Below are positions 5,507-60,581 of a stretch of DNA of 64,000 nt, piece by piece. The position numbers and the translations under genes are program-made. The number at the start of each line of letters is the position of its first letter. The stretch's first letter is position 1. The stretch is from a candidate division WWE3 bacterium RIFOXYC1_FULL_40_10. GTDB lineage: Bacteria > Patescibacteriota > WWE3 > UBA101185 > UBA10185. The notes under the pieces were generated by a model. The model did no database searches and had not been told where the DNA came from. It was given only the letters and a program-made list of their open reading frames with translations. The stretch covers positions 322,473-386,472 of the forward strand of contig MEWB01000001.1 in assembly GCA_001773215.1 (NCBI GenBank). Direction: 5' to 3'.

Positions 5507-6367
5507 ATGCAAAACATAATTGACTGGATAAGAAATAATAAGCTTACAAGTGTGTTGTTCTTGATACTAGCTTTAGTACTCTTTCAAGGAACTACTAAAA
5601 ATAAATATGGCAATACAATTGTTTCAGACGCAGTAGTCTATCAGGAGGCTGCAGGTAAAAGAGGTTTGGAACAAGTTCCCGCTCAACAACGAAGAGTAAT
5701 CACCAGCTCCAGTTTTTCTTTGCTTGTTGAAAAGGTTGTAGACACAGCGGATGCAATAAAGCTTGAGGTTGAGAAATTAGGCGGGTACGTTATAAACACA
5801 AATATTTCACATCCGGAGTCAGGAGATTACGCTTATCTTAGTATTAGAGTACCCACAGATAAAGTACCATCTATCCAAAAGCTATTAAGAGACAAATCGG
5901 TAAAAGTAGTAAATGAAAATATTTCGGGGGATGATATTACGGATCAGTACATAGATATTCAGGAAAGACTGACAAAGTTGGAAAATACTAAGAGAAGACT
6001 TGAAGAAATTATGGTTCTAGCAAAGGATGTAGACGAAATAATGATGGTTCAGCAAAACATTTTCAATCTCCAGGACCAGATCGATAGTTATAAAGGCCAG
6101 TTAAAGTATATGAATGAGGCTACAGCTACCAGCTTGATCAGTATCGACTTATCTACTGACGAGTTAGCACTGCCCTATACTCCACTGGATGTTTGGAGAC
6201 CGGGTGTTGTATTTAAGTTGGCGGTGCGATCTATGTTGGGCACCTTGCAGCAGCTAGGTACTGCTGCGATCTGGCTAGCAGTTTACGCAGTACTACTAGT
6301 TCCAGTCCTAATAGCTGTTAAACTGGGATTAAACATAATTAGGAAACGTCAGTCAAAAGTTTTGTAA
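5507..6367 (+). CDS. membrane-anchored coiled-coil protein (N- and C-terminal TM helices, DUF4349-like architecture)
   Basis: N-terminal TM, central heptad-rich region (QERLTKLENTKRRLEEI...), C-terminal TM; architecture-only call. Confidence 0.4.
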   Translation: MQNIIDWIRNNKLTSVLFLILALVLFQGTTKNKYGNTIVSDAVVYQEAAGKRGLEQVPAQQRRVITSSSFSLLVEKVVDTADAIKLEVEKLGGYVINTNISHPESGDYAYLSIRVPTDKVPSIQKLLRDKSVKVVNENISGDDITDQYIDIQERLTKLENTKRRLEEIMVLAKDVDEIMMVQQNIFNLQDQIDSYKGQLKYMNEATATSLISIDLSTDELALPYTPLDVWRPGVVFKLAVRSMLGTLQQLGTAAIWLAVYAVLLVPVLIAVKLGLNIIRKRQSKVL

Positions 6368-17645: not shown

Positions 17646-20405
17646 TCACTTTCTAACTGCTAGATCTACTGTATTGTACACACTACGCGCCTTGTTATCT
17701 TTGAATATGTTCTTGTTAAATTTGTTGGTTTCAGGGACAGTAAGTGAATAAATTCCGTACCGGTTTGCTTCTATAGTATTACCTGAAAATTCGTTGTACC
17801 CGCTTTTTATATAAATGCCTTTAGTGCTGCTACTAATATAGTTGTCTTTTACCAAATTGTTTTCGGCTCCTGAGTAAAGATAGAACCCGTATGCAAAATT
17901 ATCTCTCGTGGTGTTATTTATAAAAGCGTTATTTTTAGATTCGGCATTTACTCTTATTCCTTTATTATTCCTCTCTAAGTTGTTCTCCTTAATTAAATTG
18001 GAGTCTGAGTTGTAAATTGCAATTCCATCTTCGTTCCCGTAAACAGTGTTTCCGATAATGTAATTATTATTCGAGTCTTCGTGCAACATTATCCCGTGGA
18101 GCTTATTGTTATAGGAAGTGTTATTGACAATGTAATTGTTAAAACATCTCTTGGAAAAAATTATTCCGTGTGTTCCATTGTTATAAGATATATTGTTTTC
18201 GACTAAAAAGTTATTTGAATCATCGTGTGGATCCAAGCCATAGGCAATATTGTCATAAAACTGGTTATTTTTCCAAATCATCCCTGATGTTCCATATGTA
18301 TACGCCCCAAAGTAATTATCATGGAACTTGCTATTCATAATTTCCCCGGTCATAAAATTACTGCCGAATGATCTCGAAGGAATCCTCCAGGAGACCCCGT
18401 ATGTACCTCCTTCGGATATATCTTTAGCCTTGTATCCAAGATAGCTCAGTTCAGAATTATAGATATCGAATCTGCCGTTTCCTTTTGCTAATATATAGGC
18501 TCTTCCGTCTGAGTAATCGCTGTCGATTGTTCCGTTAACCTCGTCCCAAGATGTAATTTTTATGCCATCCATAGTTAATCTCCCGTTATTGGTTTCTAGC
18601 TTAACATATCCCTCCGCATCGCTTTTCAGTTTGATCCAGCTGGCTTCTGATAAGTTTATATCCAGGCTCACTCCGTTACCTATCATAATATTAGAAGTAA
18701 TGAGCCATGTTTTGGGATCAACTTCCTTGATGTGAGTGTATCCATCTAGTTCTGCGAGTCTTTTTAGAGTTAAACTCGACCCTCTACCAGCAACCGCCAG
18801 GCTATTTGATAGCTCACTATATGTTACCTGAGTGTAAGGAAAACGATAACTTTCAAAGTTAAAAATTCTAAGTGGAGTAAAGGCATTATCTTTTAAAGGT
18901 ATTGTAAGCGTTGTTCCAACATCAATACGGTTCCAATTAGGCAAAATGTTGAAATTGTATTTCACAATATCTTCCGGTGATGTGGCATACTTTTCTGCTA
19001 TTGTAGTAAGAGTTTCGCCCTTGGTAACAACATGCCTGGTCGCTATTGGAGCATACTCTTTTACCTCGGAAACATTTTGGAGCTGGCTTTCTAAAACCAG
19101 ATCAGAAGAAGCGGGCTCTCTTAGCAGATCTTGCTTATAAGCGGCAGTTCTTAGTATCACAGGGGTACTGACGAAAGAAATCAGGCATGTAGTTAAAAAT
19201 ATCTGGCTAAGGTTACTGAAAAAGCTAAATTTCTGCAGTCTGTGAGCATCCCATCTGGTAATCCACCCCTGCGTATTAAGTGATATTAATGCGTATATTT
19301 TAATAATTGCGCTAAAAAAGCTAAACGGGACATACAATGGCACTAACACAATGTCTGTTGGGCTTTTTTTAAGATGGGGCCACAACTTAATAGTTCTGCT
19401 AAACAGCCACCAAGCAGCTATTATACCTGCCGAGGTCCATGATTTAAGGTACAGGGCTGCGATAAAGAATAGTGGCGACAGCAGTAAAGTAAAGGGTTGG
19501 ATAGCACTATCGATAAAACCTATGAGAAATATCGGATTCTTTTGAACAAACTTGAGCTTGAAAAACGCATAAAGGTCCTCTCTCCAGGAGTTTCGTGTCC
19601 AACGAATTTTTTGCTTGATGAAGTTTGAGAAGTTTTTCATTCCGGGAGTGTATACCCTCGAGGTGCTCTGGTAGTATGTATGCCATCCTGCATTTTGTAA
19701 GGTATACGTTAGCCTTTTATCGTCTCCCGATATTACTTTTTGGCCAAAAAAGGTTTCCGACACTAAGTCATCTAGGAGGGGAAGTACTGCTTCTCTTCGA
19801 TAGAAGGCTGTTCTGCCTGATAAGCATCTTAGGTAGGGTCCTGATACCGACAAAAAAGGCATATCATCGTTGTATCGAAGGTCAAGAAGGATCGCAAAAG
19901 CCCTTTGCGCCAGTGTCAAAGGTTTTAATACAGCTTGATTAGTAGCTACTCCCCCAACGGTGGGATCATTAAACGGGCATAAACCGTTTTTTAAGACGTC
20001 TTCATCCCAAATAGTGTCGCAATCCACCAAGGCCACTATTTTACCCTTAGCTTTTCGTATCCCATCCGCTAAAGCCTCTCGTTTACCCGGGGTTTTCGTA
20101 ATTATTAATACCGACTTCTTAAACTGGGCAGAAAAGTTTTTAAATACATCAATACACTTGTAATCGGTGTAATCTATCACAGCAATTATTTCGCTGGGTT
20201 TATTCTTCACCCACGAGTTTAATGCAAGAGTAAAAACCTCGGGGGTTTCGTTATAAACGGGAGTAATTATTGAAACAGTATTCTTATAGGGATTGCTTTT
20301 GGGTCGATAAAACGAACTGACTACTTTCTTAATTAGCCATATACTCCATCTCCATATTCCTATAACTCCTATTGGAGCTATAAAGATAACATCGGCAAGA
20401 TTCAT
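17646..20405 (-). CDS. tripartite fusion: processive family-2 glycosyltransferase (membrane synthase) + LysM domain + C-terminal right-handed parallel beta-helix repeats
   Basis: GT2 DxD and QxxRW (QKIRW) motifs with flanking TM helices; LysM (TKGETLTTIAEKYATSPEDIVKYN...GTTLTIP); repeated NNxxYNNxxHGIxL units typical of pectate-lyase/NosD/AlgG-like beta-helices. Confidence 0.75.
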   Translation of the reverse strand: MNLADVIFIAPIGVIGIWRWSIWLIKKVVSSFYRPKSNPYKNTVSIITPVYNETPEVFTLALNSWVKNKPSEIIAVIDYTDYKCIDVFKNFSAQFKKSVLIITKTPGKREALADGIRKAKGKIVALVDCDTIWDEDVLKNGLCPFNDPTVGGVATNQAVLKPLTLAQRAFAILLDLRYNDDMPFLSVSGPYLRCLSGRTAFYRREAVLPLLDDLVSETFFGQKVISGDDKRLTYTLQNAGWHTYYQSTSRVYTPGMKNFSNFIKQKIRWTRNSWREDLYAFFKLKFVQKNPIFLIGFIDSAIQPFTLLLSPLFFIAALYLKSWTSAGIIAAWWLFSRTIKLWPHLKKSPTDIVLVPLYVPFSFFSAIIKIYALISLNTQGWITRWDAHRLQKFSFFSNLSQIFLTTCLISFVSTPVILRTAAYKQDLLREPASSDLVLESQLQNVSEVKEYAPIATRHVVTKGETLTTIAEKYATSPEDIVKYNFNILPNWNRIDVGTTLTIPLKDNAFTPLRIFNFESYRFPYTQVTYSELSNSLAVAGRGSSLTLKRLAELDGYTHIKEVDPKTWLITSNIMIGNGVSLDINLSEASWIKLKSDAEGYVKLETNNGRLTMDGIKITSWDEVNGTIDSDYSDGRAYILAKGNGRFDIYNSELSYLGYKAKDISEGGTYGVSWRIPSRSFGSNFMTGEIMNSKFHDNYFGAYTYGTSGMIWKNNQFYDNIAYGLDPHDDSNNFLVENNISYNNGTHGIIFSKRCFNNYIVNNTSYNNKLHGIMLHEDSNNNYIIGNTVYGNEDGIAIYNSDSNLIKENNLERNNKGIRVNAESKNNAFINNTTRDNFAYGFYLYSGAENNLVKDNYISSSTKGIYIKSGYNEFSGNTIEANRYGIYSLTVPETNKFNKNIFKDNKARSVYNTVDLAVRK

Positions 20406-21313
20406 TTCTTATTATTTTCTTTTGTATTTATACGGTCAATTAGTGTGTAATTTGCTTTTATAGTTGCCTCAAGCACCTTAGCGTCGTACCCTTTGGTTTT
20501 CGCGTAAGAAAGGAAAGCCTCGGTATCTTTTGGCAAACAACTACCCTTAAAAGGCCCAAAGTCTCGCACTCCATATGCAGGATTCCACATACCCTCACAG
20601 CTTTTAGCCACTAGATCAAGTATATTCTGAGTATTCAAATTTAAATCGTTGCAAATATCTCTAAACTCGTTGAAGTACGCAATTTTTACAGCATTAAACA
20701 GATTGTGAATATATTTTTGAATCTCTGCCTCTTCCAAAGTTACTCTATAAATTGGTGCATCGAAAACTGAGTATAGCGCTTCCAAAGTATCTCCCGATTT
20801 TTTGTCGTATTCTCCGATTACTATTATCCAGGGCTTTGTGAAATCACTCTCGGCTGTAGCCTCACGTAGATACTCTGGGTTCATACATACTCCGAAATCC
20901 TTCCCGGCTTTTTTACCAGAATACTCTTCAAGCGTTTTAATTATAAGATTTCTGGTTGTACCCGGAAGTAAAGTGCTTCGGTCGACGACCAGATGATATT
21001 TGTCACTATTTGCTAATCTCTTACCTAAATCCTTGCAGGCTTCTTTTAGATTAGTTAGATTGATTAAACCGTTAACTGTGGGAGTTGAAACACTAAGAAA
21101 AGAAATATCAAAATCGTTTTGCCCATTAAGTTCCGAGGTCACATAGGCCTTATAACCTTTGCTTCTTAAAAACGCGACTCTTTTGGGATCGATATCCAGA
21201 AAAGTAACATCCAAGTTTCTTTTAATAAAACCTAATCCGGAGGCGTAACCTACTACTCCTGATCCAATGATTGATAGTTTTAATTGGCTTGTTACTTTTT
21301 TTACTGCACGCAT
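20402..21313 (-). CDS. UDP-glucose/GDP-mannose dehydrogenase family protein, short form (303 aa, C-terminal substrate-binding domain apparently missing)
   Basis: Rossmann SIIGSGVVGYASG; catalytic-Cys motif GSCLPKD; ends ~45 aa after the Cys; overlaps the synthase start by 4 nt. Confidence 0.7.
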   Translation of the reverse strand: MRAVKKVTSQLKLSIIGSGVVGYASGLGFIKRNLDVTFLDIDPKRVAFLRSKGYKAYVTSELNGQNDFDISFLSVSTPTVNGLINLTNLKEACKDLGKRLANSDKYHLVVDRSTLLPGTTRNLIIKTLEEYSGKKAGKDFGVCMNPEYLREATAESDFTKPWIIVIGEYDKKSGDTLEALYSVFDAPIYRVTLEEAEIQKYIHNLFNAVKIAYFNEFRDICNDLNLNTQNILDLVAKSCEGMWNPAYGVRDFGPFKGSCLPKDTEAFLSYAKTKGYDAKVLEATIKANYTLIDRINTKENNKK

Positions 21314-22892: not shown

Positions 22893-23966
22893 ATGAGATC
22901 CACAGTTAAAGTATTTCTCGCCGTGGTTCTGGTGTTTTTACTAGCCAGCCCGGCGTTGGCCGAAGATTACATTACGGCGGCAGTTAATACGCTACAGAAT
23001 GCACGAGTATATGTATATCCCGGTACTGAAGGCACCGATTACTATACTTCTGCAAAGCTGGAAAGTTTGTTGCGGGATGGTGATGATCTGGTTCTTGTGA
23101 TGCTTCCGGCAGAGGCAGAAGCGGGAACAGATTTGCTCACCTTGGCTCGCAGTTTGTCCGAAGGTTTGGAAGACACTAAAATTATCGGACTTGCTGTTGG
23201 AAGAAAAGTTATTGGGTATGCTCCCAACCTACCTGTTGGAGTGGCCGCTGATCAAATGGAGCGCGCTAAGAGTGTTTCCAACGATTCTGTAACAGCTCTT
23301 GTTACTTTCTCGAGGAACATTCATCTGTGGCAAAAGGCGAATGTTAAGCAAACTCCCACACCACTTCCCACTATCACCCCTATTCCAAAGCCCACTTCTA
23401 CTCCCAGACCACCAATGTTACCAGAGGTAAAGAGAAAGCTATCTTGGTTAAGTGTAATATTCGTGATTTCACTAGTTGTTGTCGGGTTAGGTACACTAGT
23501 TGCCAGATCGCAACCGCTGTTTCTAATGAGTAAGCGGAAGCGAACTCTAAAACAAACCGAGCTTCAGATCAAAGGCATCCAAGAGGATGTGGGTTTGATT
23601 AGAGATTACAGAGTGAGAACTGAACTTTCTCATGCCTGTTTGGTTGCACTTGGCCTTGTGGAACTGCTTGAGATAGAAGGGAAGTCGCAAAGCTACACTG
23701 AACTGCAGCTACCTGTTTTGATAGGTAATATGGGAATTCAGGTTAAGTCCTTTCTAGGCCACGAGTCTAAAAGGCATCCAATTTCTCAGACGATGAATCA
23801 GAAATTAAGGGAGGTGTTGTTTAACTACGACGACTTGTTCACTAAGCTTCAGGAGGGTAATGAGAGTGCGACCGACTTACTCGCTTCGATAATCGAATCC
23901 AATAACGCAATGATTCAAGCCTTAGGCTATTTGCCCGAGGATCCTAATAAGAATGATCAGAGATAA
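22893..23966 (+). CDS. hypothetical bitopic protein: signal peptide, extracellular domain, Pro/Thr-rich linker, TM helix, cytoplasmic domain
   Basis: ORF track; PTPLPTITPIPKPTSTPRPP linker then a TM; GC higher than the genome background. Confidence 0.45.
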   Translation: MRSTVKVFLAVVLVFLLASPALAEDYITAAVNTLQNARVYVYPGTEGTDYYTSAKLESLLRDGDDLVLVMLPAEAEAGTDLLTLARSLSEGLEDTKIIGLAVGRKVIGYAPNLPVGVAADQMERAKSVSNDSVTALVTFSRNIHLWQKANVKQTPTPLPTITPIPKPTSTPRPPMLPEVKRKLSWLSVIFVISLVVVGLGTLVARSQPLFLMSKRKRTLKQTELQIKGIQEDVGLIRDYRVRTELSHACLVALGLVELLEIEGKSQSYTELQLPVLIGNMGIQVKSFLGHESKRHPISQTMNQKLREVLFNYDDLFTKLQEGNESATDLLASIIESNNAMIQALGYLPEDPNKNDQR

Positions 23967-24978
23967 GGAGATAGCTATGAAGAAACTGATTTGTCTGAGT
24001 TTGCTATTGGTTTTACTGGCCGGAATTCTGACGGCCTGCATATCGGCAGCATCTTCGACAGCAAGTTGTGCCTTTGTGGTCGGTAGTGGCTACAACGGCA
24101 ACGATTCCAAGTTGCACAAAGTAATCTTTCCCGGGCAGCAGGTCATTGTTGGTACGGACGAAGTTGTATCCTACTTTCCGTGTAACTCACGGAATTACAT
24201 CATCAACGATGGCAGCGTCAAGGATTTAAAAGGAAAGCCAGTGGGTGACCGAGCGCAATTGATTGAAGCTACGACTTCAACCGGTGTGCCGATTAAAATT
24301 GCAGCCAGGGCACTGTGGACCCTTAACCAGTCAGAGGATGCCATGGAGGCTTTCTACCAGGTATGTTTTAAATACAAGTGTGCCAGTGAGAAAGATCAAA
24401 GCGGCGACCAAAATTTCTCGACGGACGGTTGGAATGGCATGCTTGCCGAGAACATGGGTCCTGCAATGGAAACTGCTGCAAAGTACGCGGCATTCGAGGT
24501 TGATGATTCAATCTGGAATGTACAGGATCCTAAGCAGATAGAGGACCTCCAAGACAAGATGTCGGCGATTTTCGATGATGTAATGCGCGCGAATTTGGGG
24601 TACCCAGTGGATTTGTTCTGTGGATCAGGGAATTCGGCTTGGAGTGATCCTGAGCACCCTGGTGAAGGTGATTTTGTTTGTACACCTGTGCGTATTATTG
24701 TTGACTCAGTGCAGCGTGGTGATATTCAAAACGGGGAAAGTACGATGGGACTGATAGAATTGAACAAGCAGCGCCTCCAAAACGCTGTAGCTATCTATGG
24801 TTCCGTTGAAAATGCTGCATTCTGGCTTGCCTTGCAGGATTCGATCGAAAAGTGTAAAGGTTCTGGGGCGACCTGCGTTTTCAACATTGGGTTTCCGACA
24901 ACTTACCCGGTAGTTTTACCAGCGGGCGACAATGTAGCGTTACCTACTCCCGCTCCAACGGCTACAGCGCAACCTTAG
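23953..24978 (+). CDS. hypothetical lipoprotein
   Basis: Lipobox-like LLAGILTAC after a signal peptide; several Cys pairs. Confidence 0.45.
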   Translation: MIRDKEIAMKKLICLSLLLVLLAGILTACISAASSTASCAFVVGSGYNGNDSKLHKVIFPGQQVIVGTDEVVSYFPCNSRNYIINDGSVKDLKGKPVGDRAQLIEATTSTGVPIKIAARALWTLNQSEDAMEAFYQVCFKYKCASEKDQSGDQNFSTDGWNGMLAENMGPAMETAAKYAAFEVDDSIWNVQDPKQIEDLQDKMSAIFDDVMRANLGYPVDLFCGSGNSAWSDPEHPGEGDFVCTPVRIIVDSVQRGDIQNGESTMGLIELNKQRLQNAVAIYGSVENAAFWLALQDSIEKCKGSGATCVFNIGFPTTYPVVLPAGDNVALPTPAPTATAQP

Positions 24979-25004
24979 TAAATTGATCTTGTAAGTTTAT
25001 TCGT

Positions 25005-25040
25005 CCCCCGAGAGCAAATGTTTTCGGGGGATTTTCTTTT
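25005..25040 (+). terminator. Rho-independent terminator after the lipoprotein gene
   Basis: cccccgagagcaaatgttttcggggg followed by attttctttt. Confidence 0.5.
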
Positions 25041-25138
25041 GACTCAAGCTGTGATGTTACCTTGACAAACAGACCTATAACTATTAAAATTCTCAAGAAT
25101 CATCAGACTATAAGACCAATAGAACAAAGGAGTAAGGT

Positions 25139-26455
25139 ATGAATAAAGGTAAAATGCTTGACCCTAAGAATTTGTTTGCTGATATTGGAAACCCAGGGAA
25201 GCTTACAACTGCTCAGGATGGTGAGGAAGCTGCGGAGCAAGCAGGGGTAGCTGCCGAAATTAAGGCCATGAAGATTAAGAATGAGCTTGATAATCAGGAA
25301 GCCCAGATCGAACAAGCTACGGCTTTAATTGTGAGTCGTACACAAGCAATTCAAGAGAACCATGAGCTTTTTGATTTACACACTGTTATTTTCGGGTGGT
25401 TTCCCCCGGATGAAGTCAAAAAGGCAAACGCCTTGGTAGATGCTCGTAAAGCTACTGCATTGAATATCGATTCTGCAGCCAGCTATGGAGTTGTGCCTGA
25501 TAATGTAGTGGCACAATTCGTTAATTCTGCTGCTACCAGAGCTGCTGGACAGGCACGTTTGGAAGTTGCCAGGGTGCTTGATCAGGCTACTGGCGTTACT
25601 CGAAAAATTGCCGAAGACGAAAGCATCTCAGCTGACGAGGTCTCTAAGAAGGCGCAAAAGCTACTGGATAAATGGCACGACGCCCAGGTTCTAAATGCAC
25701 TGTTCAACCGCCTGTTTAAGCAGACACTGAACCGTGTGACCGATTACCAAAATCGGTTAGCGGGTGTTGGTAATGACTTAGCAAAGAAGCAAGTAACGCT
25801 GGAGACTATTTCTGCGTCCTTGTATGCTCGCCAGGAGTTGGTAAAGCGGTGTCTTTTTGACACCTGTGTTTCGGGTCTTGCTCTTGTGACAATCCTTGCT
25901 CAACAGCACGAAGTTCTTCATGACCTTGAGGTGAGCAAAAATAAGGACAGAAATTCTCCTCCTCAGGTATACGCCCAGAGGATTCAGGAGCAAGAAGCTT
26001 TGATCGAAATTACTACCAAGCGACTGGTGGACATTAAAGCGTTTGCAATTAAGCTAATCGGGTTGTACAGCGTGCTTGGTAACACACGGTTCAATGTTGC
26101 AATCATCAAGGCCGATGTTGTTTTCACCAGGACGAACCTGATGGCAACCCTAGGGTTACAGCTGGGTTTAGTTGTGGATATCATTTCCACTCTTCGAATT
26201 AGCAAAGCCGCTGGGGACATTCGCGAAGCCGAGGCCGAAGCAGCTGAAAAGGTGGGAGTGTCTACACAGGCTTTGGACGAGGCTGGCAATAAGGCTTTAA
26301 CAGACGTTCAGACTACAATCAGGAGTTTGAGGGCTACTGTTAATGCAGCGGTAGTAGGTATCAAGAATACGCACGCCAACCTCCAACGCGTCGCTGACAT
26401 GAATACTCAGGCAGAAAAGGAGTTTGCCGAGTTATTCGCAACGATGGCTGTGTAA
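25139..26455 (+). CDS. hypothetical all-alpha/coiled-coil protein (possible TelA/KlaA-like toxic-anion-resistance family; unverified)
   Basis: No signal peptide; long helical heptad regions; size and composition reminiscent of TelA-family proteins but I cannot confirm a motif. Confidence 0.45.
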   Translation: MNKGKMLDPKNLFADIGNPGKLTTAQDGEEAAEQAGVAAEIKAMKIKNELDNQEAQIEQATALIVSRTQAIQENHELFDLHTVIFGWFPPDEVKKANALVDARKATALNIDSAASYGVVPDNVVAQFVNSAATRAAGQARLEVARVLDQATGVTRKIAEDESISADEVSKKAQKLLDKWHDAQVLNALFNRLFKQTLNRVTDYQNRLAGVGNDLAKKQVTLETISASLYARQELVKRCLFDTCVSGLALVTILAQQHEVLHDLEVSKNKDRNSPPQVYAQRIQEQEALIEITTKRLVDIKAFAIKLIGLYSVLGNTRFNVAIIKADVVFTRTNLMATLGLQLGLVVDIISTLRISKAAGDIREAEAEAAEKVGVSTQALDEAGNKALTDVQTTIRSLRATVNAAVVGIKNTHANLQRVADMNTQAEKEFAELFATMAV

Positions 26456-33368: not shown

Positions 33369-33444
33369 TGGTGGGGAGGGAGGGAATCGAACCCTCATAG
33401 CCGGTTTTTCAGACCGGTGCCGTGACCGCCTTGGCTACCGCCCC
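33369..33444 (-). tRNA. tRNA-Phe (anticodon GAA); one C-T mismatch in the acceptor stem and an unusual D-arm
   Basis: Anticodon stem CCGGT/ACCGG, loop CTGAAAA, T-arm GAGGG-TTCGATT-CCCTC, 3' ACCA. Confidence 0.65.
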
Positions 33445-33548
33445 AAACTAAGACTATGTCATTTTATCAAAGAGTAGTTTATCTTACCATGAGATCAAAA
33501 AATAGCCCGGCTTAGTATTTTACTACTTTGCCGGGACTTAACGGTTTT

Positions 33549-33899
33549 CTAGTGAAACCGGTAAGGGTTATGGGTTATAAGCTCAAGGGGAATCGCCTTA
33601 TCCAACTCTTTACCAGCAAGCTCCTGGGTAGAGTACCAGCCTTCAAGATAATTGCCCAAATCGGTAAGGCCATCATCTACCTTGGAAGTGGTGTCTCCAC
33701 TTGTAACACTTAACTCCCCGGAGTCGCTCAGGGCTACCCTATACCCCTGTAACTCTGTACCTGTAGCATCAAGTAGTGTCCCATTTTCAGAAACCCGGTA
33801 CCTTGACCAGAAACCGGTTGGGTTGCTAACAGTAACCCATACTCGAACCAGAAATAACTCTCCTGCAGCTTTATTGGCCATACTACCCTCCTCACTCAC
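33549..33899 (-). CDS. hypothetical protein (GC-rich island)
   Basis: ORF track; GC clearly above background. Confidence 0.4.
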   Translation of the reverse strand: MSEEGSMANKAAGELFLVRVWVTVSNPTGFWSRYRVSENGTLLDATGTELQGYRVALSDSGELSVTSGDTTSKVDDGLTDLGNYLEGWYSTQELAGKELDKAIPLELITHNPYRFH

Positions 33900-33999
33900 T
33901 TACTATTAGGAAAATGTCACTGGATTATAGCATTTTTGACCGCACAGGTATTAATTGGTATATTGATCTCCACCAAAAATACTACTAAAGGAGAGTTCT

Positions 34000-35379
34000 A
34001 TGAACATTTGTGTTATTGGCACGGGATATGTGGGGCTAGTAGGCTCCGCTGTTTTTGCAGGGTGGGGAAATCAGGTTGTGGGAGTCGATGTCGACCAAGC
34101 CAAGCTGGATATGATTCAGGCTGGAGTGATGCCAATCTATGAGCCCGGTCTGCCTGAATTGGTTGCTCAAGGTATTAGGAGAGGTAACCTGCGTTTCACT
34201 AATTCCACTGCAGAAGGAATCAAGGATGCCGAGGTTATTTTTATCTGTGTGGGCACTCCACAAGGAGCCGCTGGTAATGCAGATCTATCCTCTGTGTTGC
34301 AGGTCGCGCGACAGATTGGCCAGAGCCTCGACCATTACGCGGTAGTAGTTACCAAGAGCACAGTTCCTGTGGGAACAAATCAACGGGTTAAGGAAATACT
34401 GCAAGAAACAACACAACAGGGTGTTCTATTTGACGTCGCCTCCTGCCCGGAATTTCTGGCCCAAGGCACATCTGTCTATGATATGGATCATCCGTCTCGT
34501 ACTGTGATCGGATCCGATTCACCCGAAGCCATTGAGCTAGTAGCGGAAGTTTTCAAGCATTTGCCAGCGGCAATCATTCGCTGCGGTTTTGCCGAGGCTG
34601 AATTGATAAAGTACGCCTCAAACGCACTACTTGCTACGAAAATTACTTTCGCAGATTCAATGGCCAGCCTTTGTGATCTTGTAGGTGCCGATGTTGTACT
34701 GGTAATGGATGCGGTAGGAAAGGATCCGCGTATCGGGGCGATGTTTTTGAGAGCCGGTCTTGGGTGGGGAGGTTCGTGTTTTCCCAAAGATGTCGAGGCG
34801 CTAGCCTATCTTGCAAGTCAACTTTCCTTGCCACTTCCACAGCTGGATGGCACGAGAAACACTAATCGACGGGTCCATAAGCGTTTCGTACACAAAATTA
34901 GTCTGTACTTCGATGGTAAGCTGGATGGAAAGACGTTCGCAGTTTTGGGACTGGCATTCAAAGCGGGAACCGATGATACACGTGAGTCGCCCGCAAAGAA
35001 AGTAATCATGCGTTTGCGTGGTGCCGGGGCTCGAGTCCGCGCTTATGACCCCAAGGCTACTGAGAAAGCAATCTTAGACCTTGGCACAACGTCTCTTGAG
35101 TACTGTGACAATCCATACGAAACTATGGCTGGGGCAGATGCGCTGGTAATCTTAACCGACTGGCCTGAATTTAAAGGATTGGACCTGTCACGAGTAAATT
35201 CCTTGCTCAAGAATCCCGTAATTTTCGATGGCCGTAACATGCTAGATCCAGAAACGGTTGAAAGGGAAGGCTTTATCTATTTTGCAATGGGCCGACCCAC
35301 AAATGGGCAACGCATTATTAATGGTAAAGATACTACCTACGTTGCGAAACTAACCAATGGAGCAGGATTGAATAAGTAG
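34000..35379 (+). CDS. ugd: UDP-glucose 6-dehydrogenase, full-length
   Basis: Rossmann VIGTGYVGLVGSAVFAGWG; catalytic GGSCFPKDVEAL; complete C-terminal UDP-binding domain; ~50% GC. Confidence 0.85.
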   Translation: MNICVIGTGYVGLVGSAVFAGWGNQVVGVDVDQAKLDMIQAGVMPIYEPGLPELVAQGIRRGNLRFTNSTAEGIKDAEVIFICVGTPQGAAGNADLSSVLQVARQIGQSLDHYAVVVTKSTVPVGTNQRVKEILQETTQQGVLFDVASCPEFLAQGTSVYDMDHPSRTVIGSDSPEAIELVAEVFKHLPAAIIRCGFAEAELIKYASNALLATKITFADSMASLCDLVGADVVLVMDAVGKDPRIGAMFLRAGLGWGGSCFPKDVEALAYLASQLSLPLPQLDGTRNTNRRVHKRFVHKISLYFDGKLDGKTFAVLGLAFKAGTDDTRESPAKKVIMRLRGAGARVRAYDPKATEKAILDLGTTSLEYCDNPYETMAGADALVILTDWPEFKGLDLSRVNSLLKNPVIFDGRNMLDPETVEREGFIYFAMGRPTNGQRIINGKDTTYVAKLTNGAGLNK

Positions 35380-35446
35380 CTTTAGGCAGCTTACAGATAT
35401 GAATAAGCCTCATGCATAAAAAACATGAGGCTATTATTTTTTCGTC

Positions 35447-36118
35447 TTATCCGGGGAATACTGCAAACCGTTCGTTCAAGGCCTTCCTCAAGTCACCATA
35501 AGTTTTGACTTTATGCGGGAAATACACACGAAGCCCGCATCTACGACATGAAAGAACATCTTGCTCTTTTGATGCTTGACGCCGATCTACCCACCCGTTA
35601 CAAAGGTCATGAACCCCCACGCAACAGGCGAGTTTAGCTTCGTCCGCGGTGTGTGTCACAAAGTATTCATAGCCGGCAAAAAGAGGTCGGGGCGGATATT
35701 CTCTGAGAAAATCTCCTTCCTCGGTAAGCTGAATGGGCATAAGAGGAACGCTTTTTAAGACCTGGGCGGTCACTTCCGCGATAAGTCTATCTCGATTTCT
35801 CAAAAAAGCTGTTGCAAGCCGAAATATATCGTTCAGCCATCCTGTTGCCATGTAATCTTCCCCATCCCTGCTAATTACTTTGTAAGGGAAATATCCGTTG
35901 ATACAGTACGTTTCTCCAGTCTTGCTTCCATCTTGATCTGTATAATGGCCGTAAAGCCGTCCAAGGGTGATAAGCTGAGGGTCAAATCCTGCAGCTTTAA
36001 CAATATCCTCCACAACTTTAAGCTCGGTATCTGACAAGTGCGTCTGATGTTCCCAACCTGTATCTTTATATTTCACTACCAAATCTGCAAAAGCGTTTAC
36101 AACAGAAGTAACTTCCAT
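35447..36118 (-). CDS. hypothetical protein with a C-terminal Cys cluster (CCVGVHDLC...SCRRCG); start re-set to MEVTSVV, which has an AAGGAG SD
   Basis: The track start at 36187 is a TTG that runs into tRNA-Gly; the internal ATG at 36116-36118 has a consensus RBS. Confidence 0.45.
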   Translation of the reverse strand: MEVTSVVNAFADLVVKYKDTGWEHQTHLSDTELKVVEDIVKAAGFDPQLITLGRLYGHYTDQDGSKTGETYCINGYFPYKVISRDGEDYMATGWLNDIFRLATAFLRNRDRLIAEVTAQVLKSVPLMPIQLTEEGDFLREYPPRPLFAGYEYFVTHTADEAKLACCVGVHDLCNGWVDRRQASKEQDVLSCRRCGLRVYFPHKVKTYGDLRKALNERFAVFPG

Positions 36119-36191
36119 TTCGATCTCCTTTCTTATATTAGTGTTCTGTGTTAAGGGATTTATACAAGTCAGTGGGAAGATAGTCAAATTT

Positions 36192-36266
36192 TGGAGCGGC
36201 GGACGGGGCTCGAACCCGCGACCTCTTCCTTGGCAAGGAAGCGTTCTACCACTGAACTACCACCGC
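36192..36266 (-). tRNA. tRNA-Gly (anticodon GCC)
   Basis: GCGGTGG acceptor, anticodon loop TTGCCAA, TTCGAGC T-loop, CCA encoded. Confidence 0.8.
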
Positions 36267-36289
36267 AAATTACCAAAATTATACCCTAT

Positions 36290-36364
36290 TGGAGGCCTGG
36301 GCGAGAATCGAACTCGCGTATAAGGGTTTTGCAGACCCTTGCCTTACCACTTGGCAACCAGGCC
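36290..36364 (-). tRNA. tRNA-Cys (anticodon GCA)
   Basis: GGCCTGG/CCAGGCC acceptor, anticodon loop CTGCAAA, TTCGATT T-loop. Confidence 0.8.
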
Positions 36365-36366
36365 GC

Positions 36367-36452
36367 TGGTGGGCGGGACAGGACTTGAACCTGCACGGGT
36401 TTTACCCCACAACGACCTCAACGTTGCGCGTATACCATTCCGCCACCCGCCC
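36367..36452 (-). tRNA. tRNA-Leu (anticodon GAG), long variable arm
   Basis: GGGCGGG/CCCGCCC acceptor, anticodon loop TTGAGGT, variable stem-loop GGGGTAAAACCC, TTCAAGT T-loop. Confidence 0.75.
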
Positions 36453-39332: not shown

Positions 39333-39668
39333 GTGGCTATTTTACCTAACGAGATTTCCCTTGAACCAAGAGATTCGTGTGAACATGCATTTGGAGGTTT
39401 CTTCGGAAAGTTCGAAATGGATTGGGTTGCGCAGTTTATCGTTACCTTGTGTACCAAGAGTAACACTTGGCGTAAGTTTACACTAAGTGAAGTTCTTTCC
39501 GTTGGCCGGCAGTCGACCCCTCGGATTGACGACGATTACATTATCGAGGGTGTCAGGTTGTTGTGGTACTACGGCTGGATAGAGCTTGTCGACGTCCTGG
39601 AGTTCGAAGCGAAGGATATCTTCATTACGCGGTGTGTGGAAAAAACAAAGGAATACAGCTCAAAGTAG
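39333..39668 (+). CDS. hypothetical protein
   Basis: ORF track; followed by a strong terminator. Confidence 0.4.
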   Translation: MAILPNEISLEPRDSCEHAFGGFFGKFEMDWVAQFIVTLCTKSNTWRKFTLSEVLSVGRQSTPRIDDDYIIEGVRLLWYYGWIELVDVLEFEAKDIFITRCVEKTKEYSSK

Positions 39669-39683
39669 CTAATATATCTCACA

Positions 39684-39717
39684 GACAAGTGCCGTAAAAA
39701 GTACTTGTCTTTTTTTT
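39684..39717 (+). terminator. Rho-independent terminator
   Basis: gacaagtgccgtaaaaagtacttgtc followed by tttttttt. Confidence 0.6.
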
Positions 39718-39929
39718 GGTGATGGTGAGGACGGTGGGATTCGGTCACCGGTTCTCGCCTGCTGGCTCGCCCGTCGACCCCGCCTCCTTCGCCTTCGCCC
39801 AGTCCGGCATTCTCACCCACCTCTTCTGCCAGTTGGTGTATCTGTTTGCCTGGTGGGATAACATTACGTTCCCCGAAGTGAATTATACAACAAAGTACCC
39901 TTTAACCCTTACCTACGAGGATATAGACA

Positions 39930-40247
39930 GTGCAATGGTCAGAATTGGAAGTAGAGTCTATGTGTAGGCTGTATAATAACTTTATGCAGGGTATACAGAC
40001 AAAAGACGCACAAGAGTTTGACCCCAATGTGTTGGAGGAAATTGTAGTAGTAGATTATTCGGAACCGGATGTAATTAAGTCCATATACTCACCAACGCTA
40101 TTTCCGCACCTTAAATTGACTACCAATGCCGTTAGCAGAGACATTGAAGTTGTTGTTGTATCAACGGAAAACGAAGATAAGCAATTACTCCACAAACTTC
40201 TGACGGAAACAAGAACGGCTCGTAATTATGTTTTGAATAAGTGCTGA
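39930..40247 (+). CDS. hypothetical protein (element cargo)
   Basis: ORF track only. Confidence 0.35.
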   Translation: MQWSELEVESMCRLYNNFMQGIQTKDAQEFDPNVLEEIVVVDYSEPDVIKSIYSPTLFPHLKLTTNAVSRDIEVVVVSTENEDKQLLHKLLTETRTARNYVLNKC

Positions 40248-42908: not shown

Positions 42909-44717
42909 ATGCCGACATTAAACTCACAAGACAAACCAGTTAAAGTAGCCTATTACCTACGAGTAAGCACGGATGACCAGATTGACCGTTATGGTATTGC
43001 ACTTCAAAAAAGGTCATTGGATGCCATTGTAGCCTCTCGTGGGACTCTTGAAGATGGAAAGACGAACGCATTACAACTCGCCGGAGAACAATACATCTAC
43101 AAAGATGAAGGTGTCAGTGGAACCATACCACTGGAAGACAGACCGGCTTTTGCGAGACTTCAAGAAGATGTTGTAAATGCACCGGACGGAGAAAAACCGT
43201 TTGATATTGTTGCCGTTTACAAAATTGACCGTTTTGCCCGAAAATTAAAGATTTTACTTGACGTCATTGAGTTCTTTGAGAAATACGGGATTAAGTTCAT
43301 ATCCGTACATGAGAGTATTGACACTTCAACTCCATTTGGGAGGGCGATTTTAGGGATTGTTGGTGTGTTGTCAGAACTTGAAATGGAAACGATAGCAATG
43401 CGAACCAGAGCCGGCAAAGAGGAAGCGATTGCAAAAGGTGTTTTCATGGGGAAAGTACCTCCATACGGCTATATCAAAGATACTGAACGAAGGCTTAAAG
43501 TGCTACCAAAAGAGGCAGAAATTGTGAACGTGATATTTGAAAAGTTTGTGGTTGAAAGGTTGCCGTTACAGGCTATATGCCGGTATTTAGAAGATAACAA
43601 GATTGAATCACCCGGAGTAACAGCAGTAACCAATCAAAAGCGTAAAGGCGGTATATCAAAGAAAAGCAACCCGTTCTTTTGGGCGACACCAATGATAAAA
43701 AACATACTTGGAGATGAAATCTATCTTGGAAAATACTACTACAACAAGACAAAGGGTAGAAAACATTTACCGAAAGCGGAGTGGAAATTGTCTGTATACA
43801 GATACGAGGCGATAGTTGATACCATCACCTTTGCGAAAACTCAAACACTGCTTGAAAACAGAAAGATATTCAATGTGGTGAGACATGACGACAAGCATAT
43901 TTACCTTTTAAGCGGTTTACTGAAATGTGCCTGTTGTTACAACCCGGAAAGAGACAAAAACGAAGGTATGCAAACATTGCATGGTGAACCAAAAGAAATC
44001 CACAAAGGTAGCCAGCACTATACTTACTACTACAAATGCAGAAGGAAAACTACTGCAAAAACCTCAATCAGATGCGGTTCGCTTCCCTTACCGGCTGAAC
44101 AAATTGAGAAATATGTTATTGAGAGACTCCGGGAACTTCTCACTGACCCAAAAGCAGTGTTTAATTATCAACTAAAATTAAGGTCAACAGAACAGGAACT
44201 TAAAAGGCTAAATACGGATTATGATATGATTCGCCGATTAAAAAATGGTCTACCACAAAGAAAATCAAACCTAAAAGAACAGCAAGAATACAGCTATATT
44301 ACCTCAAAAGAACTTACCGAGAAACTCAATGCACTTGATTCACAAGAAAAAGAGTATGACGGGAAACTGGCAGAGTGGGAAGCAAAAATATCAGAAACTA
44401 AACTAGACGAAGGTTACATCAAGAGTTTTGAAATCTTTGAAAAACAATACAAGAAGGCTTTGGAAGACATAAATAGCAACAGAGAAACATTACAACAATT
44501 ACTTCGGATGATAGTTGACAAGATAGTTGTTCACTCCCGACCAGTTAAGGAAGGAGACATTATAGCCGGAAGAAAAACCGGAGACCAACAGGTGCCGTAT
44601 AAAATAGAAATGAAACTACATTTGCCACAAGAGTATCTCAAACTTTTAGAAGCAAAAGCCAACGAAGCATGGGTCAACAGACCGGAGGAGTTCGGGGATA
44701 AAAATGTTAACTGGTGA
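42909..44717 (+). CDS. large serine recombinase (resolvase N-domain + recombinase domain + zinc ribbon + coiled coil)
   Basis: Catalytic-serine motif YYLRVSTDDQ; resolvase-domain motif DRFAR; Cys cluster CACC...C...C; ~600 aa typical of LSR integrases. Confidence 0.85.
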   Translation: MPTLNSQDKPVKVAYYLRVSTDDQIDRYGIALQKRSLDAIVASRGTLEDGKTNALQLAGEQYIYKDEGVSGTIPLEDRPAFARLQEDVVNAPDGEKPFDIVAVYKIDRFARKLKILLDVIEFFEKYGIKFISVHESIDTSTPFGRAILGIVGVLSELEMETIAMRTRAGKEEAIAKGVFMGKVPPYGYIKDTERRLKVLPKEAEIVNVIFEKFVVERLPLQAICRYLEDNKIESPGVTAVTNQKRKGGISKKSNPFFWATPMIKNILGDEIYLGKYYYNKTKGRKHLPKAEWKLSVYRYEAIVDTITFAKTQTLLENRKIFNVVRHDDKHIYLLSGLLKCACCYNPERDKNEGMQTLHGEPKEIHKGSQHYTYYYKCRRKTTAKTSIRCGSLPLPAEQIEKYVIERLRELLTDPKAVFNYQLKLRSTEQELKRLNTDYDMIRRLKNGLPQRKSNLKEQQEYSYITSKELTEKLNALDSQEKEYDGKLAEWEAKISETKLDEGYIKSFEIFEKQYKKALEDINSNRETLQQLLRMIVDKIVVHSRPVKEGDIIAGRKTGDQQVPYKIEMKLHLPQEYLKLLEAKANEAWVNRPEEFGDKNVNW

Positions 44718-44786
44718 GGACGGTGGGATTCGAACCCACGACCAAGGGATTAAGAGTCCCCTGCTCTACCACTGAGCTACGTCCCC
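44712..44786 (-). tRNA. tRNA-Lys (anticodon CTT)
   Basis: GGGGACG acceptor, GCTCAGTGGTAGAGC D-arm, anticodon loop CTCTTAA, TTCGAAT T-loop, CCA encoded. Confidence 0.8.
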
Positions 44787-59885: not shown

Positions 59886-60371
59886 CTAAAACAACTGTCC
59901 ACGGCCTTGCCCCCAGCATGCAAAGTAATTTTTCTCAATTTGCCGGGCGGCCTTAAGCTGCTTCTTCGTTAGCAAGCCCAGCTGAGCATTTCCCGGTTGC
60001 TTTTCTTCATACATTGCTTTAAACAGGCTTTCAAAAAGGACATCCCGCAGCTGTTCGAATGTCAACTCGCCTCGATCCTCTGTCTCGTGATCGTACAGGT
60101 CTACGATGAAACTGTAGACGCAGTCACCGATCAACACGAGCCAACTCGTGAGTTCTGTTTCCGAATCGAGAGTAGCGAAAAAGTGCCATATTTTATTCTC
60201 CAAGTGAGAGTAATAATTTCCCCCATCGTACCTCGTGCAAAACCCGCTAATGTGGCCAAACCCTTCGTAGTTGCCATTCTCTGCCTTTTGAGCCCATGCC
60301 AAATAAGCAGAGTCGAAATGACTGCGGCAAGCTACAAGATCGAGATGACTTACTCTAGCATTTGTACTCAT
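59886..60371 (-). CDS. hypothetical protein (islet cargo)
   Basis: ORF track; GC higher than background. Confidence 0.45.
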   Translation of the reverse strand: MSTNARVSHLDLVACRSHFDSAYLAWAQKAENGNYEGFGHISGFCTRYDGGNYYSHLENKIWHFFATLDSETELTSWLVLIGDCVYSFIVDLYDHETEDRGELTFEQLRDVLFESLFKAMYEEKQPGNAQLGLLTKKQLKAARQIEKNYFACWGQGRGQLF

Positions 60372-60504: not shown

Positions 60505-60581
60505 TGGCGCCCCCAAGAGGATTCGAACCCCTAACCTCTTCGTCCGAAGCGAAGCGCTCTGATCCGTTGAGCTATGGAGGC
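60505..60581 (-). tRNA. tRNA-Arg (anticodon TCG)
   Basis: GCCTCCA/TGGGGGC acceptor, anticodon stem CTTCG/CGAAG with loop CTTCGGA, TTCGAAT T-loop, GCCA 3' end. Confidence 0.8.

Follow-up and report, generated by a model that had tools for sequence, protein, structure and literature searches.

In the 64,000-nucleotide stretch of WWE3 DNA analysed here (the window), the interval 33445-36191 lies between tRNA genes on the minus strand identified with ARAGORN and Rfam. The left boundary is tRNA-Phe(gaa) (33369..33444; RF00005, 62 bits), on the 5' side of which the interval lies. The right boundary is a cluster at 36192..36452 comprised of tRNA-Gly(gcc) (36192-36266), tRNA-Cys(gca) (36290-36364) and tRNA-Leu(gag) (36367-36452), the coordinates of which confirm the sequence-only reading that the interval is on the 3' side of tRNA-Gly. 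Three genes are present, encoding a 110-aa beta-protein (33549..33881, minus strand), a full-length UDP-glucose 6-dehydrogenase of 459 aa, Ugd (34000..35379, plus strand), and a 223-aa zinc-ribbon protein (35447..36118, minus strand). From the promoters, ribosome-binding sites and terminator hairpins read in the sequence, the three seem to be separate transcription units, each with a promoter and terminator of its own.

The deduced sequence of Ugd contained all three Pfam domains of the family, PF03721 (E 2e-61), PF00984 (E 1e-31) and PF03720 (E 9e-36), and scored 439.5 bits against TIGR03026 (cut-off 189.8). Residues 2-434 aligned with the UDP-glucose dehydrogenase of PDB 4a7p (E 1e-114), and the motifs VIGTGYVGL, ELIKYASNALLATKITF and GGSCFPKD matched the same motifs of that structure, in agreement with the earlier description of a complete Ugd carrying the first and last of them. 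The GxGxxG motif, the catalytic Cys (GGxCxxKD) and the Lys/Asn of the central helix were all identified. The best matches in the PDB were UDP-glucose dehydrogenases (E 1e-114 to 1e-74), followed by GDP-mannose dehydrogenase (9e-68) and UDP-ManNAc dehydrogenase (1e-51). Since the scores fell under the equivalog cut-offs for TuaD (483 of 700 bits) and AglM (345 of 670 bits), the substrate assignment is one of family-level similarity; by family membership, the enzyme would convert UDP-glucose to UDP-glucuronate with reduction of two NAD+ by way of the Cys of GGSCFPKD. A sigma-70-like promoter (TTGACC, 17 nt, TG-TATATT; 33936..33964, plus strand) was located by consensus scan with 10/12 matches in the divergent intergenic region, and the RBS AAAGGAG precedes the ATG at 34000. 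Transcription from this predicted promoter would end at a hairpin (GCCUCAUG/CAUGAGGC; 35401..35443) common to the convergent 223-aa gene, with the U-run on the Ugd strand and folding energies of -19.8 and -20.3 kcal/mol (z -2.9 and -4.0).

No glycosyltransferase adjoins Ugd in the window. The best candidate for a consumer of UDP-glucuronate is encoded 13 kb away, in the minus-strand region 17646..21313, where the gene at 17646-20405 specifies a 919-aa protein in which GT2, LysM and beta-helix domains are fused (Pfam). Searches of the PDB related the GT2 part to hyaluronan synthases (E 3e-10) and the beta-helix to the AlgG mannuronan C5-epimerase (E 4e-29). Overlapping the fusion gene by 4 nt is a second Ugd-family gene (20402-21313), the 303-aa product of which is 25% identical to full-length Ugd, consists of the N-terminal and central domains only, without the nucleotide-sugar-binding domain, and retains the catalytic Cys. 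These results bear out two statements of the sequence-only reading, that a truncated Ugd-family gene sits at 20402 and that Ugd could serve an acidic glycan. Use of Ugd for a uronate or acidic glycan is plausible, in which case the product would most likely enter a uronic-acid-containing envelope glycan with the hyaluronan-synthase-like/AlgG-like fusion as its putative user.

The hypothetical 116-aa protein described previously corresponds to an ORF that is indeed present and starts with GTG, but the product is more likely 110 aa, with the ATG at 33881 following the RBS GAGGAGG, a start on which gene callers concur. The ORF is followed by an intrinsic-terminator-like hairpin (CCCGGC...GCCGGG then a U-run; 33496..33538, minus strand; -18.3 kcal/mol, z -2.5). 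The AF2 model (pLDDT 82) is a beta-meander with a C-terminal helix for which no fold match was found in the PDB, and the sequence, which contains the conserved family motif LEGWYS, gave no match in Pfam, NCBIfam, PHROG or PADLOC. The family is very rare; three stand-alone homologues were found among 1.84 billion representatives, and the homologue P0359 sits between tRNA-Gly(ccc) and tRNA-Thr in the locus L069. Conservation of the 110-aa ORF beside Ugd in the loci L008 or L009 was considered and rejected, no similarity being found.

The 223-aa gene starts with the ATG at 36118 after AAGGAG, 73 nt from the 3' end of tRNA-Gly; the earlier reading was right in assigning a Cys-cluster protein to this position, but not in its length of 224 aa or in placing its start against the tRNA. 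The 73-nt spacer contains a promoter-like sequence, TTGACT-17-TATAAA (36159..36187, minus strand), the -35 box of which is the TTG at 36187 that was therefore rejected as the start codon. No terminator was detected in the spacer, which is unstructured (z +0.5). The protein belongs to a family restricted to Patescibacteria that is distributed patchily over 114 clusters, is under purifying selection and has an invariant H-x2-C...C-x2-C zinc ribbon together with invariant His, Cys, Asp, Glu and Asn residues. Pfam gave no match, and nothing in the PDB resembled the predicted structure, which was modelled with confidence and would thus represent a novel fold. A metagenome scan was conducted with a 14-sequence alignment as the query. 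Phage origin was rejected at the sensitivity of the searches, which returned no IMG/VR relative and no PHROG match. Literature searches found nothing specific. An ORF of equal length in the locus L070 proved unrelated and was rejected as a member.

The GC content of the interval is 0.460 compared to a window mean of 0.399 and 0.35-0.39 in the immediate flanks, with a peak of 0.50 within Ugd. The interval is the stretch of 2.7 kb with the highest GC in the window (z about +2.7 to +3), a value attained by 6 of the 205 sliding windows, four of which overlap the interval and two of which lie at 23.7-26.7 kb. Thus, the GC-richer interval noted from the letters alone is real, but the contrast is smaller than the 50% against 36% originally given. 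The codon chi-square ranks of the three genes were 10, 35 and 17 of 61, and the z-scores for GC3 only +1.7, +1.3 and +0.3, the mild elevation (1.3-1.7) being that of Ugd and the 110-aa gene. The dinucleotide delta* of 35.8 was below the window mean of 50.3±21.7. The GC content predicted from the amino-acid composition of the interval genes was 0.441-0.458 versus a typical 0.398, accounting for 66-77% of the GC excess. All three adjacent genes encode proteins rich in Gly, Ala, Arg and Pro (z 1.8-2.5), a property that could be intrinsic to the families or be left over from a donor of higher GC.

In favour of a discrete island that inserted recently and site-specifically at the 3' end of tRNA-Gly, and that brought in Ugd with two cargo genes from a donor of higher GC, are the top GC value in the window, the siting 3' of a tRNA gene, the mildly raised GC3 of two genes and a wider synteny different from that around the nearest homologues of Ugd. 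Searches of Pfam, NCBIfam, PHROG and PADLOC revealed no recombinase domain in the three ORFs, the 3' 45 nt of tRNA-Gly had no match of at least 11 nt within 12 kb, and no boundary repeat of the interval was found. The test for att repeats was validated in the same window by recovery of the 21-nt perfect repeat of a 5-kb tRNA-Lys element that encodes a serine recombinase. A likeness of 17 nt to the T-arm of tRNA-Gly within Ugd (35025-35041, 2 mismatches) was put down to chance. Exact protein matches identify the genome as WWE3 RIFOXYC1_FULL_40_10 (GCA_035290405.1). The interval was present in each conspecific contig spanning the site, and the contigs retrieved by exact-protein look-up of the flanking hydrolase either carried the interval or broke at the tRNA genes; no conspecific contig without it was found. 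Since the search also yielded no empty-site genome, acquisition of the interval is something we infer. The databases contained no close relative of the lineage, the best non-self match to the flanking cyclophilin being 58-65% identical, and the Ddl-like protein of the flank, used to scan GTDB, retrieved six loci only (47-56% identity), without tRNA-Phe or a common order. A recent island is also at odds with the host-like dinucleotide signature and codon usage, with a GC excess that is mostly amino-acid-driven, and with the host-level GC3 of the 223-aa gene, most relatives of which are far GC-richer than their hosts. Overall, the results make such a recent insertion very improbable.

The location of Ugd in related genomes is consistent with an older history. 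The closest homologues (73-76% identity) were located between tRNA-Thr(cgt) and tRNA-Gly(ccc) in 4/4 examined loci (L008, L009, L070 and L071), where the slot adjoins GH18, Wzx, Wzy and Big_13 genes and the co-resident genes are different in each. The GC3 of Ugd in the four loci was 0.55, 0.41, 0.37 and 0.28 with neighbours at about 0.30, so that Ugd was richer than its neighbours in three. Since all four homologues lie in a tRNA-bounded variable slot and three are GC3-richer than their neighbours, old or recurrent transfer of Ugd into such slots is plausible. The proposal of horizontal acquisition in the sequence-only reading therefore survives as a plausible old transfer, but not as a discrete recent island. 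That reading had named uniform GC3 and codon usage combined with conserved synteny as evidence against acquisition; the checks placed GC at the top of the window with near-uniform GC3 and codon usage, but wider synteny was not conserved with the four nearest-homologue loci, the spanning conspecific contigs all being alike, so that half of this evidence was found.

A wholly native region, inherited vertically, in which the rise in GC is a by-product of proteins rich in Gly, Ala, Arg and Pro and the placement beside tRNA genes is incidental, would account for the host-like signatures and for the large share of the GC excess explained by amino-acid content. The Ugd gene itself provides further agreement, as in each of the five genomes of the 73-76% clade it has a GC1 of at least 0.51 and a GC2 close to 0.40; the values in L072 were 0.48 and 0.40. 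Furthermore, between L008 and L009 the syntenic orthologues share 32-66% identity and the Ugd proteins 73%, a mutual divergence equal to that from the window Ugd, and therefore the 73-76% identity could come by vertical descent. Pure vertical descent is hard to reconcile with same-slot Ugd orthologues that range in GC3 from 0.28 to 0.55 beside neighbours near 0.30, or with a slot in which the other genes change from genome to genome. More than 8000 matches were obtained for Ugd, compared to 114 clusters for the 223-aa family and 4 representatives for the 110-aa family, both of which are rare and patchily distributed, and a genome also labelled WWE3 encodes a 55%-identical Ugd inside a glycosyltransferase operon without a GC anomaly. 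A native origin of the whole region is thus considered unlikely.

Some properties of the 223-aa family would suit a mobile gene. A same-strand tRNA gene was found 70-430 nt upstream at about 9-10 of 24-25 independent loci versus 15/265 control ORFs, an enrichment of about six-fold (Fisher p 5e-6) that involves eight tRNA identities. Cassettes that are 84-87% identical in DNA (dS about 0.5) adjoin different tRNAs in unrelated flanks, and the promoter, 5' UTR and GNRA-loop terminator move along with the gene. On average, GC3 is 0.16 above that of neighbouring genes, and many loci have z > 4; high expression was rejected as the cause since ribosomal-protein genes of the CPR loci have the lowest GC3, indicating that the excess is no expression signal. 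These results, together with the predicted novel fold and the invariant residues, are what would be expected if the gene were selfish and mobilised itself, as a free-standing homing-type nuclease of new fold might, with the 3' flanks of tRNA genes as its target, and if its arrival either made or marks a hot spot for Ugd and the 110-aa gene. However, no catalytic domain of a nuclease or recombinase was found in the protein by sequence or fold, the cassettes showed no terminal or target-site repeats, and no filled-versus-empty pair was seen. Partial synteny about the gene in L011 and L035 is compatible with vertical descent, about 60% of the loci have no nearby tRNA, and IMG/VR contains no copy of the gene. 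The copy in the window is old, with 52% identity to the nearest relative, saturated dS and host-level GC3. The motif 'GGAAAT plus hairpin' found 3' of tRNAs was rejected as an element end since in L045 it also lies behind an unrelated tRNA-Arg, proving it to be a generic tRNA trailer. A selfish cassette at the origin of the slot is accordingly improbable. An extended form of the idea is that the family represents a new class of self-contained GC-rich cassette spreading in Patescibacteria by insertion just 3' of tRNA genes, with targeting performed by the encoded protein of unseen fold. The window copy would then be an old case that has since ameliorated, and cassettes of this kind would help to create the tRNA-bounded slots where Ugd-like genes gather; the idea is offered as speculation with a small chance of being correct.

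The reading most consistent with the results, to which a probability of about 0.6 is assigned, is that the interval represents a flexible slot, bounded by tRNA genes, of the WWE3 chromosome with three separately transcribed accessory genes rather than a recently integrated island. In this flexible slot, the genes would have come into tRNA-flanked positions long ago, or have been relocated there. Synonymous sites would since have largely equilibrated with the host, leaving a GC excess that is mostly the composition of proteins rich in Gly, Ala, Arg and Pro. The 110-aa protein belongs to a very rare family with one member elsewhere in the same kind of slot, and the 223-aa protein to a CPR-restricted family which elsewhere forms what seems a self-contained GC-rich cassette, often just downstream of tRNA genes.

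An old and largely assimilated accessory slot is mostly ordinary, and as posed the finding changes little. It records that an ultra-small WWE3 genome retains a stand-alone Ugd in a tRNA-flanked slot, probably for a uronic-acid surface polymer. It also shows that islands in CPR genomes are poorly called from raised GC alone, which here comes mostly from amino-acid composition, and the genuine tRNA-Lys element of the window provides a useful calibration contrast. The sole unusual item of the interval is the uncharacterised 223-aa family, which, if mobile or tRNA-related, would be a new player in the poorly understood genome dynamics of Patescibacteria.

The window Ugd shares the three domains, the GxGxxG Rossmann motif and the Cys of GGSCFPKD with the Ugd, UgdG, HasB and TuaD enzymes of TIGR03026, including UgdG of Sphingomonas elodea (PDB 4a7p); unlike the bacterial Ugd of has, tua and cps loci, it is encoded by a stand-alone gene between tRNA genes, outside a glycan operon. 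The interval resembles tRNA-associated integrative islands in its location 3' of a tRNA gene, raised GC and patchy accessory genes, and differs from them in that it has neither an integrase or recombinase nor a duplicated att site and that its dinucleotides and codon usage are host-like. The tRNA-Lys element, in contrast, is a true case of such an island, with recombinase, att duplication and a distinct signature. Free-standing homing endonuclease genes are inserted near tRNA genes, as is segB in the tRNA cluster of phage T4. Only the 223-aa family is comparable to these, being a single-gene cassette of anomalous composition that has its own predicted promoter and terminator, is patchily distributed and recurs beside tRNA genes; it differs in showing no similarity of sequence or fold to GIY-YIG, HNH, LAGLIDADG or PD-(D/E)xK enzymes, in having been found in CPR cell genomes but in none of the viral contigs searched, and in that no empty and filled sites were seen. 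Relative to the inter-tRNA hot spots of CPR genomes (L008, L009, L069, L070 and L071), the bounding tRNAs are Phe(gaa) and Gly(gcc) instead of Thr(cgt) and Gly(ccc), the flanking core genes are others, and DNA likeness is restricted to the Ugd coding sequence. The arrangement is nevertheless alike, with Ugd opposite in strand to two flanking same-strand tRNA genes, one of them tRNA-Gly, and with small variable genes alongside, among them the 110-aa homologue in the slot of L069.

The interval at 33445-36191 lies between tRNA-Phe(gaa) (33369-33444) and a cluster of tRNA-Gly(gcc), tRNA-Cys(gca) and tRNA-Leu(gag) (36192-36452), all on the minus strand and identified with ARAGORN and Rfam. Exact protein matches assign the window to candidate division WWE3 bacterium RIFOXYC1_FULL_40_10 / GCA_035290405.1, a member of the Patescibacteria (CPR) with contigs of ~0.9 Mb. 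The 2.7 kb between tRNA-Phe and tRNA-Gly contain three ORFs, each with a good ribosome-binding site: a 110-aa ORF (33549-33881, minus strand), the 459-aa gene encoding a UDP-glucose dehydrogenase, Ugd (34000-35379, plus strand), and a 223-aa ORF (35447-36118, minus strand). A small ORF had been noticed at the tRNA-Phe end and is present, although the 116-aa form starting at GTG is less likely than the 110-aa form. The Ugd gene has a promoter of its own (TTGACC-17-TATATT) and has a terminator hairpin in common with the convergent 223-aa gene; the three genes have separate expression signals for each. All three were present in every conspecific contig extending across the site, the contigs having been found via Ugd or a flanking hydrolase. 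Two short conspecific contigs from independent assemblies (L064 and L065) stop in the 3'-terminal part of Ugd, ~70 nt past the 223-aa gene, which could reflect strain heterogeneity there or simply low coverage. Overall, the description that fits best is a flexible slot bounded by tRNA genes, in which a Ugd that looks functional is accompanied by two rare accessory genes.

Ugd is complete, as the sequence-only reading had it. The protein carries all three family domains, scores above the TIGR03026 cut-off and aligns end to end with UDP-glucose dehydrogenases of known structure (best 4a7p, E 1e-114); the Rossmann motif, the Lys/Asn helix and GGSCFPKD all fall within the alignment. GDP-mannose and UDP-ManNAc dehydrogenases gave far lower scores.

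The interval had been proposed as a horizontally acquired, GC-rich island in surroundings of 36% GC. The rise is real but the contrast was overstated: the interval is 46.0% GC (up to 50% within the first half of the Ugd gene) against 39.9% for the window, with immediate flanks of 35-39%. It is the GC-richest 2.7 kb in the window, ~3 SD over the mean of 205 sliding windows, and is equalled only by a block at 23-26.4 kb. The excess resides mainly at codon positions 1 and 2, with GC1 of 0.55-0.60 (typical 0.40-0.50) and GC2 of 0.39-0.44 (typical 0.30-0.37) in the three genes. The GC3 values of the 110-aa, Ugd and 223-aa genes were 0.46, 0.44 and 0.40 (z +1.7, +1.3 and +0.3) relative to a length-weighted mean of 0.382±0.046. 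The proteins are rich in Gly, Ala, Arg and Pro and poor in Phe, Tyr, Met, Ile, Asn and Lys. Expected GC, computed from each amino-acid sequence and the pooled synonymous usage of the window, was 0.457, 0.458 and 0.441 (same gene order), and amino-acid content therefore accounts for 66-77% of the excess. Synonymous usage was host-like, ranking 10th, 35th and 17th among 61 genes, a result contrary to the island proposal. The dinucleotide signature was host-like as well: its distance from the window (delta*) was 35.8, random 2.7-kb windows averaging a higher 50.3±21.7. The raised GC is mostly an effect of protein composition.

Delta* was anomalous in two regions, 39-44.7 kb and 22.9-26.4 kb. The block at 22893-26455 (GC 0.45-0.48, delta* 90-100) is unlike the interval and holds three ORFs without a Pfam domain, two of which match the phage families phrog_31970 (E 1.6e-31) and phrog_33784, a membrane protein. 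Two small ORFs without a Pfam domain, at 39333-39668 and 59886-60371, deviate most within the window in synonymous codon usage and GC3 (z +3.5 and +3.1); the second of them adjoins tRNA-Arg(tcg) (60505-60581).

No recombinase gene was detected in the interval, and the 3' end of tRNA-Gly is not repeated at the opposite boundary or elsewhere within 12 kb. At tRNA-Lys(ctt) the same procedure recovered a 21-nt stretch of the 3' end, TGGTGAGGACGGTGGGATTCG, as a perfect direct repeat at 39723-39743 and 44712-44732. The repeats bracket 5 kb ending in the gene for a 602-aa large serine recombinase (42909-44717), the end of which lies inside the tRNA; among the cargo are a cupin gene and two genes of the glyoxalase family, and nowhere else in the window is the dinucleotide signature as anomalous. 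An 83-aa "ORF" at 39716-39967, whose GC3 is 0.68, shares its 5' end with the att remnant (39723-39743), and the ORF at 39333-39668 lies just outside this att site. The segment 39723-44732 is a genuine element integrated in tRNA-Lys(ctt), and its recovery shows that the method works; the interval is without those hallmarks. Searches for closely related species retrieved none: a flanking cyclophilin gave best non-self matches only 58-65% identical, and a GTDB scan with a Ddl-like neighbour gave only 47-56% relatives, without synteny.

Gene order around Ugd is not conserved; the closest homologues (73-76% identical) occupy a different slot. In all four loci examined (L008, L009, L070 and L071) the homologue lies between tRNA-Thr(cgt) and tRNA-Gly(ccc), beside a GH18/Wzx/Wzy/Big_13 cluster, with DNA similarity to the window limited to the Ugd coding sequence. 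Its co-residents differ per locus (DUF5680, HIT, a 2086-aa protein, T5orf172, Abi_alpha). In the CPR group comprising these loci and L069, the slot is hypervariable next to the conserved cluster, and in four genomes it holds Ugd accompanied by varying accessory or defence-like genes. The 110-aa protein matched nothing in any family library searched, and its predicted structure (pLDDT 82), in which a beta-meander is followed by a C-terminal helix, had no fold match in the PDB. Three stand-alone homologues were found among 1.84 billion representatives (30-36% identity, LEGWYS motif in common), one of which, P0359 of L069, lies in the tRNA-Gly(ccc)/tRNA-Thr(cgt) slot where other genomes hold Ugd.

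Between L008 and L009 the Ugd proteins are 73% identical and syntenic orthologues 32-66%; the 73-76% identity to the window Ugd is therefore unremarkable and counts against recent transfer into the window's genome. The GC3 of Ugd in the four loci was 0.55, 0.41, 0.37 and 0.28 with neighbours at ~0.30, a graded excess suggesting that sources richer in GC gave rise to the clade, by acquisition or repeated replacement, and that amelioration is under way. In a genome labelled WWE3, a Ugd of 55% identity and without a GC anomaly lies inside a glycosyltransferase operon. Of the island proposal, horizontal transfer at some depth in their history stays plausible for each of the three genes; recent integration is unsupported, and the genes were probably assimilated long ago. 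As originally posed, the GC-rich interval is an ordinary finding.

The 223-aa family was surveyed in 40 metagenomic loci and loci fetched by exact look-up (L011, L013, L021-L060). It comprises ~114 clusters at 35-55% identity without a Pfam domain in its members, and those named are all Patescibacteria (WWE3, Wolfebacteria, Moranbacteria and Sungiibacteriota). The gene forms a monocistronic cassette in which 65-87% DNA conservation spans a consensus promoter, 5' UTR, CDS and GNRA-loop terminator, with flanks unrelated between loci. In GC3 the gene is on average 0.16 above its neighbours (z > 4 in many loci), at 0.6-0.75 where host GC3 is 0.33-0.55. Expression was ruled out as the cause because ribosomal-protein genes have the lowest GC3 in CPR loci. 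Placement just after a tRNA gene is enriched: ~9-10 of 24-25 independent loci have a tRNA on the same strand 70-430 nt upstream, compared with 15 of 265 control ORFs (Fisher p 5e-6). These tRNAs have eight different identities, and cassettes with dS ~0.5 adjoin tRNA-Ser(gga), tRNA-Trp(cca) and tRNA-Ser(gct) in surroundings that are unrelated. The family might accordingly be taken for a mobile element, but neither terminal or target repeats nor viral relatives were found, the fold is not nuclease-like, and one locus pair with partial synteny fits vertical descent. The window copy is old, with 52-55% identity to its closest relatives, saturated dS and host-level GC3. The family is a modest yet real curiosity worth separate study.

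Some tRNA flanks in these loci have further features. L045 has a GIY-YIG-like reading frame (YVGVTNDLNRRLFEHNSG...) at 3573-4000 between tRNA-Arg(tcg) and the family gene. In L043 and L044, 13 nt of the tRNA-Arg(gcg) 3' end are duplicated at ~3880-3900, 218 nt past the tRNA and immediately ahead of the cassette promoter, which hints at a small insertion at that tRNA flank. A GGAAAT trailer followed by the hairpin GCCTCGCTTCGCTCGGC occurs in L027 (3774-3900), L034 (3756-3900) and L045 (~5870-6000). Several CPR contigs conserve the trailer behind tRNA genes that are unrelated to one another (Val, Ser, Arg), and with its hairpin it is probably a common tRNA 3'-processing or terminator element.

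Ugd had also been proposed to supply UDP-glucuronate for an acidic surface glycan, a role that is plausible with a candidate partner in the window. The second, truncated Ugd-family gene reported earlier was found 13 kb from Ugd; it encodes a 303-aa paralogue (25% identity) that keeps the catalytic Cys and has no C-terminal nucleotide-sugar domain. With a 4-nt overlap it is followed by the gene for a 919-aa protein (the two genes together span 17646-21313), a candidate synthase that, we infer, the stand-alone Ugd could supply. The locus is a candidate for polyuronate synthesis and epimerization, and the 919-aa protein is plausibly a uronic-acid polymer synthase judging from its domains: a GT2 domain closest to hyaluronan synthases, then LysM, then a beta-helix closest to the alginate (mannuronan) C5-epimerase AlgG.
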